The notes beneath the pieces were generated by a model that saw nothing but the letters and a program-made list of their open reading frames with translations, was not told where the DNA came from and made no database searches. Of a stretch of DNA of 59,885 nucleotides, positions 15,876 through 45,095 are shown piece by piece (position 1 is the first letter of the stretch; each line of letters opens with the position of its first letter). The DNA is taken from the IMG/VR virus record IMGVR_UViG_3300017970_000002, positions 1-59,885 of that record; one strand, given 5' to 3'. Made by a program: the position numbers and the translations under genes. Source of the DNA: a virus. Taxonomy: Duplodnaviria; Caudoviricetes.

Positions 15876-16283
15876 TCAGTGCGGACGCCGTGGTTCACGC
15901 GCGTTATATCCAGGGACGTACTCCTCGATCTTATGCCACTCGACGCCATTGACCTTGGCGAGGTAGGCCATTTTGAGTGCGTGCTGGCGAAGCGGCACGT
16001 ACCGACCGATCTCCCACGAGCGGATGGTGTTCTCTTTCAGACCAAGCTGCTCGGCGAACTTGGTCTGGGTCATGTGGAGGGCGCCTTTACGAAGCGCGCG
16101 GATGTCATCGCCGGACGGCGGGTAGTAGACCGGCTTGCGCCGCAGCATCTTGTCGCGAAGGGTTTTGACGCGTTTGCGGCGGGCGGCGACGCGTTTGACT
16201 CGCTTTCGCTCAGTGGCCTTATAGATGTCCCATTTGTAGGCCTCAGATAGCTCAGCATCCACGTCATCCACGAGCCACAGCAT
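15876..16283 (-). CDS. XRE-family HTH transcriptional regulator
   Basis: 'IRALR..MTQTKFAEQLGLKENTIRSWEIGRYVP'. Confidence 0.9.
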   Translation of the reverse strand: MLWLVDDVDAELSEAYKWDIYKATERKRVKRVAARRKRVKTLRDKMLRRKPVYYPPSGDDIRALRKGALHMTQTKFAEQLGLKENTIRSWEIGRYVPLRQHALKMAYLAKVNGVEWHKIEEYVPGYNAREPRRPH

Positions 16284-16308
16284 AGCTCACCGTACCGCAG
16301 TGAGTCAA
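16279..16308 (-). promoter_or_regulatory. Leftward promoter
   Basis: TTGACT-N18-TATGCT. Confidence 0.5.
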
Positions 16309-16321
16309 GACCAAAATTTTG

Positions 16322-16350
16322 TTGCAATCAGGTTGCGGCGGGTGTATATT
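16322..16350 (+). promoter_or_regulatory. Rightward promoter for helicase gene
   Basis: TTGCAA-N17-TATATT. Confidence 0.65.
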
Positions 16351-16356
16351 CGCTCG

Positions 16357-16462
16357 GTCGGCTATCCCCCGGCGTTCTGACTCTGCGGCCCGGACCTACC
16401 TTTTTGCCGGGCCATTTTCTTGGTCAGCGTTTAGAAGGGAATAGCCAGACTGGGGATACGAC
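16357..16462 (+). promoter_or_regulatory. Structured, switchable 5' leader
   Basis: Nested stems GGCTAT/ATAGCC, CTGAC/GTCAG, GGCCCGG/CCGGGCC; alternative anti-SD TATCCCC pairs GGGGATA. Confidence 0.65.
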
Positions 16463-17377
16463 ATGGGAACGACCGCCGACCGTGACATCATTGAGGGAAT
16501 ACTTCCACGTGACCGGCTGCATTTAATTGCGGGGCCATCGGGAGTCGGCAAGAGCACGCTGATCTTCCAGATGGTCGAGGCGATCAGGGCAGGCACGCCA
16601 TTCTTTGGGTTCCCGGCCACGCCAGTACCGATTCTCTACATCACCGCCGACCGCACGCGTAAGGAGCACGAGGAGACCTGCGTGAGAGTTGGGGTCGATT
16701 TCGCAGGCATCAAGGTCGTGACGATGGGCGACTACCTGAGCCTGCCATTGCTGGTAGAGATCCTCGACAAGCATGCACACAAAGACTATCTAGTTATCGT
16801 AGAGCCACTTCCGTTCTTTATTGTAGACGCATTGAACCGGCCCGGGAACATAAACGACAACACTCAGGTGTCCAGGTTTCTGTCGATGCTGAAGGTGCGT
16901 TGTGAGAAAGAAAAGTACACAATGCTCGGCAGTTGCCACGCTCCTAAATCCAAAGAGGGCAACAACTACCAGATGATGCGCGAACGGATCGCCGGTACCA
17001 ATGCATGGGGCGCATACACAGCGACGAACATCTGCCTAGAGTTACAAGATCCCAGTGATGTAGCGAGCCCATTCCGGGCGATCCATTTCATCCTCAGAAA
17101 CACCAAGAGCTTCTCTAAGCAGTTCCAGTTCACCGATACGGGAAGGCTGGAGATTTGCCAACCCGGTAAGTCGAATGCATGGGCTGCTCTTGACAAAGAA
17201 CTCAACAACTGGCCCCCGGATCAAACGATTACTACCGATGACCTGGAGATGTGGAGTGGGTTGGTAAACTGCTCCCGCAAGACGCTTTACCGCTGGGTAG
17301 ACGCCAAGATCATGGAGGTCGAGATGATGAGGATCGACCGAGGCTTGTACAAGAAGCTGAACCGGGCGGCAAACTGA
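16463..17377 (+). CDS. RepA-like AAA_25 (SF4-like) helicase with C-terminal HTH
   Basis: 'GPSGVGKS', 'H..K', 'RIAGTNAW'; C-terminal 'CSRKTLYRW..GLY'. Confidence 0.85.
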   Translation: MGTTADRDIIEGILPRDRLHLIAGPSGVGKSTLIFQMVEAIRAGTPFFGFPATPVPILYITADRTRKEHEETCVRVGVDFAGIKVVTMGDYLSLPLLVEILDKHAHKDYLVIVEPLPFFIVDALNRPGNINDNTQVSRFLSMLKVRCEKEKYTMLGSCHAPKSKEGNNYQMMRERIAGTNAWGAYTATNICLELQDPSDVASPFRAIHFILRNTKSFSKQFQFTDTGRLEICQPGKSNAWAALDKELNNWPPDQTITTDDLEMWSGLVNCSRKTLYRWVDAKIMEVEMMRIDRGLYKKLNRAAN

Positions 17378-24576: not shown

Positions 24577-24891
24577 TTGACCCACCATCGGCCCCTGCCA
24601 TCTGACCTCATTCGCCGCACTAATGCCCTCCCGCAAGCTCGGCGAGCGGTGACCGATCTGCTTGGTGCCAAATCCGACTGGGGAAGGCCGCCTTTGGTGC
24701 GCAAGCTGGAGACGTATCCGCTCGCCGACTACCTCTATGACCGGTCTCGGGCTAGTGATGATCTTAAGAAGGCCGAATTAGGTTGGTTATGGTACATTCA
24801 TCGGCAGCCCGAGGACGTACAGGAGGCGGTCAGGAAGGTATCACGCCTGTTCGGGAAAAAACCCGACATTTTTGCACCAATTTATGCTTGA
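24577..24891 (+). CDS. Hypothetical protein
   Basis: TTG start with AAGGA SD. Confidence 0.5.
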   Translation: MTHHRPLPSDLIRRTNALPQARRAVTDLLGAKSDWGRPPLVRKLETYPLADYLYDRSRASDDLKKAELGWLWYIHRQPEDVQEAVRKVSRLFGKKPDIFAPIYA

Positions 24892-28673: not shown

Positions 28674-29303
28674 ATGCCAGACGTAGATACGATCGACATA
28701 AACGACCCAGCATTACAGCAGGAGATGGTGGAGGCTGATCCGGAAGCAAATTTCTTCGAGGCGCCGCCGCCGCCGCCAGACGATCGGGAGTATGAAGTGC
28801 GCATCGTGTGTGAGGAAGCGCCGAAGATTGCAAGGCAGGCTAAGAAGGGCGAGCAGAAGGGCAAAGGAACCGGGCCGTTGTACGCCAACTTCTCACTGAC
28901 ACTGCGCATCGTGGCACCGAACGAGCCATGGGACAACCAGCCGGTGTTCGACAAAGCGACGAGCATGGTCATGGAAAATTCAGGCACGAGCAGGCTGCAC
29001 TCGATCCTGCGCGCGGTGCGGGCACCAGCCTTGGGTAGGATGACGCTGCGCGAGCTGATCGACCACGCGACGAATGTGTTCGCGACCGAGCCGACTGCGT
29101 TCATCGAGGGTGAGTGGGAATCGAGCATCGAGGCTCCGGGGAACAAGCGCGCGGATAAGGGTGGGTACGTGCGCGCCCGGCGTGGTATGCAGAACTTTGT
29201 GAAAGACGACACGAAGCCTAGCGGTTACAACCACGTGTGGGATGATCCCGAGCTTGGGCCTGCGCCTGCGAAGTTTCGTGTTACCAACTACATCATTCGG
29301 TAG
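28674..29303 (+). CDS. ssDNA-binding protein-like (DUF669-type)
   Basis: 'PPPP....Y.V.I' start; follows Sak4. Confidence 0.55.
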   Translation: MPDVDTIDINDPALQQEMVEADPEANFFEAPPPPPDDREYEVRIVCEEAPKIARQAKKGEQKGKGTGPLYANFSLTLRIVAPNEPWDNQPVFDKATSMVMENSGTSRLHSILRAVRAPALGRMTLRELIDHATNVFATEPTAFIEGEWESSIEAPGNKRADKGGYVRARRGMQNFVKDDTKPSGYNHVWDDPELGPAPAKFRVTNYIIR

Positions 29304-29540
29304 AGTTTGCCGCCCGAGTCCGGTAGGTCCGGGTCCCGTAGTCAGTCACTGGTTGACGGCGGGCGGTATGAATTGGCGGCCAAGTTGTGCAGGTAAGGTC
29401 GGGTGGGTCTAGCTCGAAAGAGGGCCATGTCATCCCGGCGCCGCCAAATAGATCCTGGGGACGGCGAGCTAGAAGTGGACCTGCGAGGGCTGCTGACTGG
29501 GCGATGACCCGTCCCTGGGTGATTTACGACTAGGTGGATT
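29304..29540 (+). ncRNA. Candidate multi-hairpin antisense/regulatory RNA
   Basis: Three closing stems (29308-16/29360-68; 29373-80/29440-47; 29454-64/29509-19); complementary to helicase and MCP leaders. Confidence 0.65.
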
Positions 29541-29542
29541 GA

Positions 29543-29773
29543 ATGCCACGACGATCAAGTGAAGGTGCCAAGATTCTGCGGTTCTTCGACACGGAGCCGC
29601 TCGACAAGGTTCGGTTCGTATTCGACATGGTGCGGGATGTGGTCGCAGCGCGGGTCAAGGCTGCGAATCCGCAGCCGATCAAGAAGGCAGCCACGCGGCG
29701 CAAGAAGCCGAACGCGAACCTGCCGCAGGCCACGGCTGAGCAGAAGGCCGCAACGAGTCCCGAGGCTGACTGA
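29543..29773 (+). CDS. Small basic protein
   Basis: ORF with SD. Confidence 0.65.
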   Translation: MPRRSSEGAKILRFFDTEPLDKVRFVFDMVRDVVAARVKAANPQPIKKAATRRKKPNANLPQATAEQKAATSPEAD

Positions 29774-30021
29774 TGGACAAAGACCTCGAACGCGAGCTCG
29801 ACTCAACCCCCGCGATCCCGCCGATCACGGTAGATCAGCGCAAGTATCTGACGGGCCTGCTCGACGAACTCGATATCACGCTAGAGGAAGCCATGCGCGA
29901 TTCCTGCGTGAATGGCGATTTCATGTGGGACCCGGAGGAGATCGAGGACGTGGGGGAGCTGAGCAAGCGGCAGGCGAGTGTGTTGATCGATTATCTGAAG
30001 CAACTTAGGCATGAACGATAG
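29773..30021 (+). CDS. Hypothetical protein
   Basis: 'T..Q.KYL..L...LSKRQASVLIDYL' phage motif. Confidence 0.7.
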   Translation: MDKDLERELDSTPAIPPITVDQRKYLTGLLDELDITLEEAMRDSCVNGDFMWDPEEIEDVGELSKRQASVLIDYLKQLRHER

Positions 30022-43688: not shown

Positions 43689-45095
43689 CTAACTCCCTGT
43701 ATTCTCGCACGTTTCCACGTGGCTGATCGATGGAACAATCGTTGGACATGTAACCGGCGTAGGCACTGGCGGAATCGGTTGTGTCTCGACGATCAGCGTC
43801 AGTTTACCCTGCTTCTGAGCCGCTGTGGCATCGAACTGCACGGCGACCTCAACTTCCAACGAGCCTTCCTTTTGAGCTGCCGTCGCATCAAATGTCTTGC
43901 CTGAGCCAACGAGGGTTGCTGATAATACTCCAGCCTTCTGTGCTGCTACAGCGTGAATCGTATCAAACACTTCAATGGCCAGCGCACCGGCGCGTTGCAA
44001 CATCTGCGCCGCAAGCTGCTTGGTCTTGGTTATCGAAACGGTGAGCACTCCCTGCTTCTCGGCGGCGGTTGCATCGAATGCTGTAGCAACCGCCCGATTA
44101 AGTGCCCCTTGCTTCGTGCTCGCTGTAGCGTCAAGCTGCGTAAAGACTTTGCGACCGAGCGTTGCCGACTTCGTGTGCGCTGTCGCTGTCAAGTCCGCTG
44201 TAATTACGAATGACTTCGTGACAAGGAGTCGGCGCTTCGGTAGGACCAGCCCGTACGGGTAATTCGACAGCTCCGCGATCTCGTCGCCACCGAGCGCGCG
44301 CTTCCAGATCGCAAACATCTGCGCGGTGCCTTGGCAGTAGCGCGAATCCGAGTAGTTCGGCGTGTACATGAAACGCGCGACTGTCGCTGTGTTTGTGACG
44401 CTCCACGAGCTGGCCGACCCGTAGAGCATTCCGTTCATCCAGATCTGTTGAATCGAGCGCTTCGTTGACGCCACGCAGAAGATGATGACGTAGCTGCCGT
44501 GCAACTTGGCTTGGCCTTCATTGCCAGCCGTGATGCTGTCCAGTGCTGTATAAGATCCTGACGGCGAACCCTCGGGGAAGAACGATGGGTACCCGAAGTA
44601 CACACCCTCGCCAGTGCCCGCCACGTACATGCCGAATCCATTCGATGACCCATCGCCGATCGCCATGACCGTCGAGTACCCGCCTGAGACGCCTGGCTGC
44701 GAGGCCGAGAACCCGACGATCGCCATCATCGTGAACTCGCCCATCGAGAAGCTGAGATTTGAGAGCGTGCCCACGTACTGGGAATCGGCATTCAGGCAGA
44801 CGAGACCAGAACCATCCGGGTCCCACGCCGGGGAGCCAGAGGTTGAGAAAGTAGACGGGACACCGGCGCCAGCCTGTGCCGCGATCTGATGGATCGTCGA
44901 GCCGATGCCTTCGTTCAATGGGATGAGCGCAACTAGGCCGGTCGCGGATGGATGCGCGGAATTGAATAGCGCATTAGGCCCTGGACGCCAGCCACCTGCG
45001 GATGGAGACGGCGTATCGGCTGGAGAAAGCCCCGGTACGTACCACTGCGGCGATCGCGGCGGATTTACACGCTGGAATACGAGCGGCCCAGGCAT
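43689..45095 (-). CDS. LamG/concanavalin-like fibre protein with ~22-aa repeats
   Basis: 'LNEG.G', 'WMNG', 'FAIWKRAL...EI..L...PY'; repeats 'FDATAAQKxGxL'. Confidence 0.75.
   Translation of the reverse strand: MPGPLVFQRVNPPRSPQWYVPGLSPADTPSPSAGGWRPGPNALFNSAHPSATGLVALIPLNEGIGSTIHQIAAQAGAGVPSTFSTSGSPAWDPDGSGLVCLNADSQYVGTLSNLSFSMGEFTMMAIVGFSASQPGVSGGYSTVMAIGDGSSNGFGMYVAGTGEGVYFGYPSFFPEGSPSGSYTALDSITAGNEGQAKLHGSYVIIFCVASTKRSIQQIWMNGMLYGSASSWSVTNTATVARFMYTPNYSDSRYCQGTAQMFAIWKRALGGDEIAELSNYPYGLVLPKRRLLVTKSFVITADLTATAHTKSATLGRKVFTQLDATASTKQGALNRAVATAFDATAAEKQGVLTVSITKTKQLAAQMLQRAGALAIEVFDTIHAVAAQKAGVLSATLVGSGKTFDATAAQKEGSLEVEVAVQFDATAAQKQGKLTLIVETQPIPPVPTPVTCPTIVPSISHVETCENTGS

Follow-up and report, generated by a model that had tools for sequence, protein, structure and literature searches.

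A conserved structured leader with attenuator-like features precedes a putative replication gene in an uncultivated peat phage

Results

The leader of the first rightward early gene is a candidate attenuator

With roughly even confidence, we interpret positions 16357-16462 of an uncultivated phage genome (the window, which is the whole analysed stretch of 59,885 bp) as the 5' leader of the first rightward early gene and as a conserved promoter-proximal attenuator or structured leader. The proposed core would have two parts, namely a GC-rich hairpin (16387-16413) that precedes a U-run and the tetranucleotide CUUG (16415-16422), and a helix between 16377-16382 and 16422-16427 that would clamp the base of this hairpin. 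Because the core (hairpin, U-run, CUUG and clamp helix) is conserved, it is probably functional, and because the hairpin with its U6 tract has the form of an intrinsic terminator in the relatives, the element was read as an attenuator or a structured leader. Such an element would determine the extent to which early rightward transcription and translation get through to the replication gene. In the window, an anti-Shine-Dalgarno (anti-SD) segment, UAUCCCC, would additionally have two alternative partners, a decoy, GGGAAUAGCC, in the outer stem of a long hairpin (conformer A), and the true SD (conformer B). This anti-SD/decoy/SD switch may have been added in this phage, where it may provide extra translational control or may partially replace the attenuator.

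The leader lies in a divergent spacer of a peat phage genome

The IMG/VR record represents a complete virus whose genome measures 59,885 bp, carries direct terminal repeats and has a GC content of 58%. No nucleotide match for the phage genome was found by blastn against GenBank phages, few of the phage genes matched PHROG families, and no tRNA or tmRNA genes were found in the genome. The phage is a member of an uncultivated peat and soil clade in which annotated genes are almost absent, and the promoter-leader module in front of the ATPase gene is among the few regulatory elements of this clade to be recognizable with nothing but sequence. The DNA runs in which the phage was found are peat metagenomes; contigs from four such runs (X1-X4), belonging to four studies, cover 16000-16800 whole or in part with zero differences. 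Since the four runs do not differ, they offer no microdiversity for testing compensatory change in the leader. As a separate observation, the phage appears to recur unchanged between these samples, and one of the runs may be the source sample.

Genes run leftward in the region from ~1 kb to 16283 and rightward from 16463 to ~36.3 kb, and the leader lies in the 179-bp spacer between the two divergent gene sets. On the minus strand, the spacer is flanked by a 135-aa HTH_3 regulator gene (15876-16283; Pfam HTH_3, 1.6e-07; PHROG transcriptional regulator families), and on the plus strand by a gene for a 304-aa ATPase with a RecA fold (16463-17377; Pfam AAA_25, 2.9e-16). The AlphaFold model of the ATPase had a pLDDT of 81.5, and its best Foldseek matches were the RadA helicase and the RepA helicase of RSF1010 (TM-score of 0.63-0.64 on the target), with the scores of KaiC and RecA close behind; the similarity to the ATPase core of RSF1010 RepA was seen with 1nlf and 1g8y (E ~1e-10). 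When the ATPase was compared with phages by tblastn, only matches with 25-26% identity were obtained, to the ATPase domains of primases and helicases. The AAA_25 gene product is thus probably a RepA-like replicative helicase as judged from the structural model, and since KaiC, RadA and RecA score alike, its helicase activity is putative.

Four distinct leaders share a hairpin, a U-run and CUUG

To compare leaders, we collected loci that carry ATPase homologues. Seven homologues with 55-73% identity were present in the protein database (P0002-P0008), two of them encoded on contigs of 38.8 and 59.6 kb. Searches with the single ATPase protein or with alignment A1 found no loci in the viral, metagenome and genome collections, and alignment A3 found none among genome contigs. 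A terminase search led to 20 related viral loci, and an ATPase homologue was detected in 2 of the 15 records searched behind them; a widened ATPase alignment yielded 10 metagenome loci. The nine loci with usable upstream DNA represented three distinct sequences (L025, L028 and L030), whose ATPases are 34-38% identical to that of the window, so that four distinct leaders, including that of the window, were available. L011 is a closer relative (terminase identity of 77%), and its sequence ends ~30 nt into the leader.

The promoter scan detected a rightward promoter-like site, TTGCAA-17-TATATT, at 16322-16350 (plus strand), with a predicted start at ~16357 (16356-16358). A site of the form TTG(T/C)AA-17-TAnnnT was found at the same relative place in all four distinct leaders, and the equivalent in the partial L011 sequence is TTGCGC-17-TAACAT. 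The leader is therefore predicted to be transcribed from a conserved sigma-70-type promoter, starting at ~16357 and not downstream of 16370, the outcome that the original prediction had named as speaking against it. On the minus strand, the scan detected TTGACT-18-TATGCT (16279-16308) in front of the HTH gene; a leftward TTGAC(A/T)-18-TAnnnT site was present in all four leaders (TTGACA-18-TAnnnT in L025, L028 and L030), and the divergent layout with the HTH gene was kept in these three relatives and in L011. Exactly between the -35 boxes of both divergent sites, a 10-bp perfect palindrome, CAAAATTTTG (16311-16320), was read from the sequence, which might serve the HTH protein as an operator or act as an UP element.

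The four leaders are 101-115 nt long, and in each of them a GC-rich hairpin is directly followed by U4-6 and CUUG. In the window, the terminator-like hairpin (16387-16413, plus strand) consists of GGCCCGG, a 13-nt loop and CCGGGCC; it was predicted with a probability of 0.98-0.99 and was more stable than dinucleotide shuffles (z -2.56, P 0.016). Its stem has 7 bp, compared with ~7 to 11 bp in the relatives. The U-run plus CUUG of the window, UUUUCUUG (16415-16422), corresponds to UUUUUUCUUG in the relatives, and when both strands of the 59,885-bp window were searched, the pattern T{4,}CTTG was found at this single site. Across the four leaders, 59-87 nt separate the predicted start site from the U-run.

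In the relatives, U6 directly follows the stem and the loops have ~12-16 nt; the terminator scan called only one of the three because its loop limit is 3-8. The U-run of the window is weaker than those of the relatives (A-UUUU-C-UU after the 13-nt loop), and the terminator scan gave no call. Furthermore, the distance from the end of the U-run to the start codon is 44 nt in the window versus 16-23 nt in the relatives, the window having ~25 extra bases between the U-run and the SD. Inspection of the folds revealed no convincing antiterminator alternative that takes up the 5' arm, no antiterminator gene was found among the Pfam or PHROG matches of the phage genes, and no leader peptide was found in the leader. 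Termination at this hairpin, as well as the switching considered below and its trigger, is what we infer from the sequence features, their conservation and covariation, and the predicted thermodynamics.

The occurrence of the leader beyond these loci was also surveyed. Alignment A2 matched 4 of 22 PIF1-related records, and the upstream region was viewed for one of these (G030, leaving out G024, G029 and G031); this more distant homologue has a short leader without the hairpin/U-run/CUUG motif. The motif was absent from 26 further related records as judged by a plain 9-mer and by a narrow-gap pattern that missed even G002 among 28 records. The plain 9-mer, TTTTTCTTG, matched 6 records compared with 12 control matches, and the five new sites had no promoter or hairpin context. 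Among viral contigs, a pattern of promoter followed by UUUUUUCUUG matched at least 120 stretches, and none of the 15 with the most stable fold before the U-run was leader-like. Rfam gave 0 matches at the gathering score for the whole window, and only chance-level matches at E up to 10 for the leaders of the window and L028. As a side observation on the PIF1-like helicase of the phage (30025-31317; loci L163-L241), at least 250 relatives were present in IMG/VR; of the 79 loci kept, 21 had 40-55% identity and belonged to phages of ~55-100 kb, and the clade with this helicase is much wider than the clade with the AAA_25 gene and the leader.

A covarying helix starts directly after the U-run

MAFFT alignments left the helices out of register, so covariation was counted by a script from the CUUG anchor over the four distinct leaders. 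In the relatives, the clamp helix is anchored at the C of CUUG, where its 3' strand begins. In the window, the 5' strand X, CUGACU (16377-16382), pairs with the 3' strand X', GGUCAG (16422-16427); in the anchored comparison the helix reads CUGACUCUG / CUUGGUCAG, paired at position 1 and positions 4-9. The corresponding helices are CUGCAAG / CUUGCAG in L025 (7 bp), UUCUUCCCAGG / CUUGGGAAGAA in L028 (11 bp) and CCGACAAG / CUUGUCGG in L030 (8 bp). At positions 5-7, all 12 cells from the four leaders were Watson-Crick pairs, and each column contained three different types of pair. In this anchored comparison, compensatory change is thus seen at positions 5-7 of the clamp helix. When the helix alone was compared with shuffles, a test that ignores the fixed CUUG anchor, the P value was 0.54 for the window and 0.062, 0.0002 and 0.15 for the relatives.

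The two kinds of leader differ in topology. In the relatives, the 5' strand of the clamp lies inside the hairpin loop, which would give either an H-type pseudoknot or an alternative hairpin; in the window, it lies 5' of the hairpin and the two helices nest. The alternative hairpin with the clamp helix was the minimum-energy fold of L028, and enforcing this alternative cost 7-8 kcal/mol in L025 and L030.

The leader of the window is predicted to adopt two folds

The original prediction described the leader as a two-state translational switch in which conformer A leaves the SD free and conformer B buries it. All pairings on which that model was built are present in the sequence. The outer stem of A joins GGCTATCCC (16360-16368) to GGGAATAGCC (16437-16446) with one bulged A, its arms being 90% complementary according to the repeat finder. 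It encloses a second stem predicted by RNAfold (16371-16374 / 16428-16431), the middle stem CTGAC(T) / (G)GTCAG, which is the clamp helix, and the inner stem GGCCCGG (16387-16393) / CCGGGCC (16407-16413). This nested four-stem hairpin was the minimum-energy fold in RNAfold. In B, GUCG (16357-16360) pairs with CGAC (16459-16462) and UAUCCCC (16363-16369) with GGGGAUA (16452-16458), leaving a GC bulge, so that 16357-16369 would cover the SD GGGGA (16452-16456) and the spacer up to 16462 with a duplex energy of -16.8 kcal/mol.

The B duplex exceeded dinucleotide shuffles with a P value of 0.0145 (2000 shuffles of the upstream leader against the SD region), and hairpin A (16360-16446) with a z of -1.8 and a P value of 0.042; the middle and inner part (16377-16427) gave a z of -3.09 and a P value of 0.012. 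A and B are thus each modestly better than shuffled controls. The fold of the whole leader (16357-16465) was not unusual (z -1.14, P 0.136), and the z was -0.77 for a 141-nt stretch around it.

The outer stem of A had a predicted probability of 0.52 and the B helix one of 0.36-0.37 in transcripts starting at 16357 or 16358, which would correspond to coexistence of both conformers, and the hand-built states had energies of -34.5 (A) and -32.0 kcal/mol (B). When 16377-16400 was constrained to be unpaired in RNAfold, the probability of B rose from 0.37 to 0.81 (start 16357), in the direction that the original prediction had anticipated, and the pairing of the SD rose from 0.55-0.68 to 0.88-0.92. 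However, with a start at 16356, B already had a probability of 0.80 without any RNA, and with a start at 16360 or later, other folds occupied the SD. Since a shift of the start by one base changes the balance between A and B, the in silico switch is fragile. Furthermore, A does not leave the SD free as had been claimed: in the ensemble starting at 16357, the SD bases were already paired with a probability of 0.55-0.68, and with a start at 16360, where the full B helix is impossible, five of the six SD bases were paired with the coding region with probabilities of 0.57-0.80.

The comparison with relatives divides the proposed structure in the same manner. Comparative support exists for the inner and middle stems, and there is none for the outer stem and B, which had no counterpart in the three distinct relatives; the first 40-45 nt of the relatives fold into a hairpin of their own, and no equivalent pairing of the SD was found at their 5' ends. 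A short hairpin is also predicted at the 5' end of the window (GUCGG-CUAUCCC-CCGGC, 16357-16373) in a terminated RNA of 62 nt, with the anti-SD UAUCCCC in its loop. L011 has GCCGG-AUGUCUCC-CCGGC at this place, so that the short 5' hairpin (GYCGG, a C-rich loop and CCGGC), present in the window and L011, is a third competitor to A and B. Of the two-state switch, bistability from a start at 16357 or 16358 therefore stood, and its independence from the exact start and its presence in relatives did not. We regard an anti-SD/decoy/SD switch in this phage as something that may exist, being thermodynamically plausible in these models and statistically modest.

These data bear most directly on the first alternative to an attenuator-type leader, a switch that acts purely in cis. 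Here the 5' anti-SD would toggle between the decoy (A) and the SD (B), the trigger being the order of folding, temperature, a protein or cleavage. The small energy difference between the two states, the shuffle tests of the B duplex and hairpin A, and the likeness of the decoy GGGAAUAGCC (16437-16446) to the SD region GGGGAUACGAC are consistent with it, and the C-rich loop in the partial leader of L011 points in the same direction. However, the 5' ends of the relatives fold locally, one base of start choice shifts the balance, the stability of the whole leader is ordinary and the pairings were chosen post hoc. As an explanation of the whole leader, a purely cis-acting switch thus seems rather unlikely to us.

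Trans-acting RNA, protein binding and processing are less probable readings

If the leader does terminate, the short transcript could itself act as a self-limiting small RNA. In this reading, the terminated leader (~62 nt in the window and 85-92 nt in the relatives) would use X to pair in trans with X' on read-through transcripts in a dose-dependent manner. X is complementary to X' and their pairing covaries; X occupies the loop of the hairpin in the relatives, and in the predicted terminated RNA of the window it is flanked by two hairpins; and X' abuts or overlaps the SD in L025, L028 and L030. However, X' lies 25 nt from the SD in the window, and folding in cis explains the complementarity of X and X' more simply, so we give this reading little probability.

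A protein that binds DNA was considered as well, since the leader shares a sequence with a distant non-coding spacer ahead of the PIF1-type helicase operon. The motif (A)GGTAGGTC(C)GGG occurs at 29322-29333 with a variant at 29392-29403, and it is found inverted in the leader loop at 16389-16400 (minus strand); moreover, G002, a related record whose syntenic spacer does not align with that of the window by MAFFT, has a copy in this spacer at 44726-44736. The match between 16389-16400 and 29322-29333 might therefore reflect sites bound by one protein and not an interaction between two RNAs. On the other hand, the copies are few, no candidate binding protein was identified, the leader of G002 has no copy of GGTAGGTC(C)GGG, and the motif was noticed post hoc, the 12-mer with up to two mismatches not being enriched (5 found, 4.82 expected). 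A protein-bound DNA motif accordingly has as small a probability as the self-limiting small RNA.

Double-strand-specific RNases activate expression by cleaving the lambda N leader and T7 early mRNAs. By analogy, hairpin A (~26 bp with internal loops) could be cut by such an RNase, which would remove the anti-SD and activate translation. In the window, an early phage mRNA is indeed predicted to begin with a long imperfect hairpin, and cleavage would part 16357-16369 from the SD; however, the relatives have no long outer stem, and we consider activation by processing very unlikely.

The complete model of the original prediction placed the trigger in a distant antisense RNA: an RNA from 29304-29540 would pair with 16377-16400, open the inner stems of A, drive the leader into B and stop translation of the ATPase. 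The complementarity itself is real. No other place in the genome complements the leader as well as the site at 29322-29345 (plus strand; score 16), which has 12 exact bases and 20 of 24 Watson-Crick pairs plus two G-U pairs and would in part bring loop against loop, with ACCUA of the leader loop facing UAGGU of a hairpin loop predicted in the spacer; blocking the target of this site also shifted the predicted ensemble towards B, as described above. It is, however, only marginally above chance. The runner-up scored 15, 22 of 400 shuffled leaders scored at least 16 against the genome (P 0.055), and in a duplex-energy scan the value of -42.7 kcal/mol at 29322-29345 was closely followed by -42.5 and -40.6 kcal/mol elsewhere. 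Both loci were compared in one related record, G002, leaving out G001, which has the same score and an identical leader. The best complement of the syntenic G002 spacer to its own leader was 11 nt long; 46 of 784 background windows did at least as well (280 of 784 when G-U pairs were allowed), and this complement was not among the top genome-wide duplexes.

The spacer (29304-29542), which had been taken for an RNA gene, has none of the signs of one that were looked for: no promoter-like site and no plus-strand terminator-like site were found in 28900-29800, the fold of 29304-29540 was no better than shuffles (z +0.65), and the spacer had no Rfam match. In addition, the claim that RNA binding shuts off helicase synthesis would meet the opposite effect, since the 5' arm of the terminator-like hairpin falls within the target 16377-16400 and binding during transcription would open this hairpin, so that more read-through, and not shut-off, is predicted. 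Judged from these comparisons, a distant antisense RNA is not supported as the trigger; the long-range link to the leader is corrected here to chance level, and the complete antisense model is most unlikely.

As for the spacer itself, it is probably followed by a real gene, a 76-aa ORF (29543-29770, plus strand) that starts with the ATG at 29543 (MPRRSSEGAKILRFF...) and is homologous to an ORF of G002 at 44787 (MPKRTSDSARILNFF...); the listed ORF at 29559-30008 is in another frame and looks spurious.

Discussion

An attenuator-type leader in front of a replication gene has parallels in plasmids. In pIP501, a 329-bp leader lies between copR and repR; attenuation occurs in this leader, and the repressor CopR acts together with it (PMC4981023). 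The phage leader resembles those of pIP501 repR and pT181 repC in placing a terminator-like hairpin just ahead of a replication gene, within its leader, and in having a small repressor gene as a neighbour (for pIP501, PMC4981023). In contrast to pIP501 and pT181, where a countertranscript from the opposite strand is used, the helix partner of the bases after the U-run lies in the same RNA. No minus-strand promoter-like site was detected inside any of the four leaders; the only minus-strand sites lie upstream of the rightward promoter and would serve the HTH gene.

In lambda, a terminator that follows a promoter and a short leader is read through for expression of downstream genes, as in P_R'-6S RNA-tR' with Q and in N/nut with tR1. 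The arrangement described here is similar to both systems, with a promoter, a short leader and then a terminator-like element before the phage genes. Unlike in lambda, neither a gene resembling Q or N nor a nut site or pause element was identified in the phage, and the gene that would be regulated is an early replication gene. To our knowledge, the covarying clamp helix has no counterpart in lambda.

The c4 RNAs of P1 and P7 and the CI RNA of P4 are co-transcribed antisense immunity RNAs in which an upstream segment is complementary to a downstream site near the ribosome-binding site (RBS). The phage leader likewise has an upstream structured segment complementary to a site near the RBS in the same transcript. 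It differs from these immunity RNAs in its replication-gene context and in having no sequence or Rfam relation to them, and processing and action in trans would be hypothetical here. Riboswitches and RNA thermometers provide a further parallel, since they use anti-SD and anti-anti-SD platforms, and the preQ1-I riboswitch is an H-type pseudoknot. Competing helices would hide or expose the SD in the leader in a similar manner, and in the relatives the loop pairs with SD-adjacent bases in an H-type topology. In contrast to preQ1-I-type riboswitches, the leader has no Rfam match and gives no hint of a ligand or sensor, the linker consists of U6, and the hairpin with U6 is terminator-like.

Taking the attenuator-type reading further, the leaders might represent an undescribed class of phage leader RNA, in which a covarying helix beginning right after the U-run (as a pseudoknot in the relatives, nested in the window) would keep a terminator hairpin locked and couple premature termination to ribosome access. 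In its full form, the terminated leader might double as a self-targeting small RNA that limits the ATPase according to genome copy number, and in the window this logic would have been rebuilt as the anti-SD/decoy/SD switch; we consider this complete scheme unlikely. If the hairpin, the U-run and the clamp do control read-through or translation, the leader would represent a new and compact way of dosing a replication gene, as well as a candidate for a new RNA family.

Elsewhere in the genome, a separate possible bidirectional terminator was observed at 24840-24880, where a rightward ORF meets a leftward ORF: GTTCGGG-AAAAAA-CCCGAC is followed by TTTTT on the plus strand, and T6 is present at 24861 on the minus strand. 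The T-run at this place is one of only 22 runs of at least T5 in the genome.
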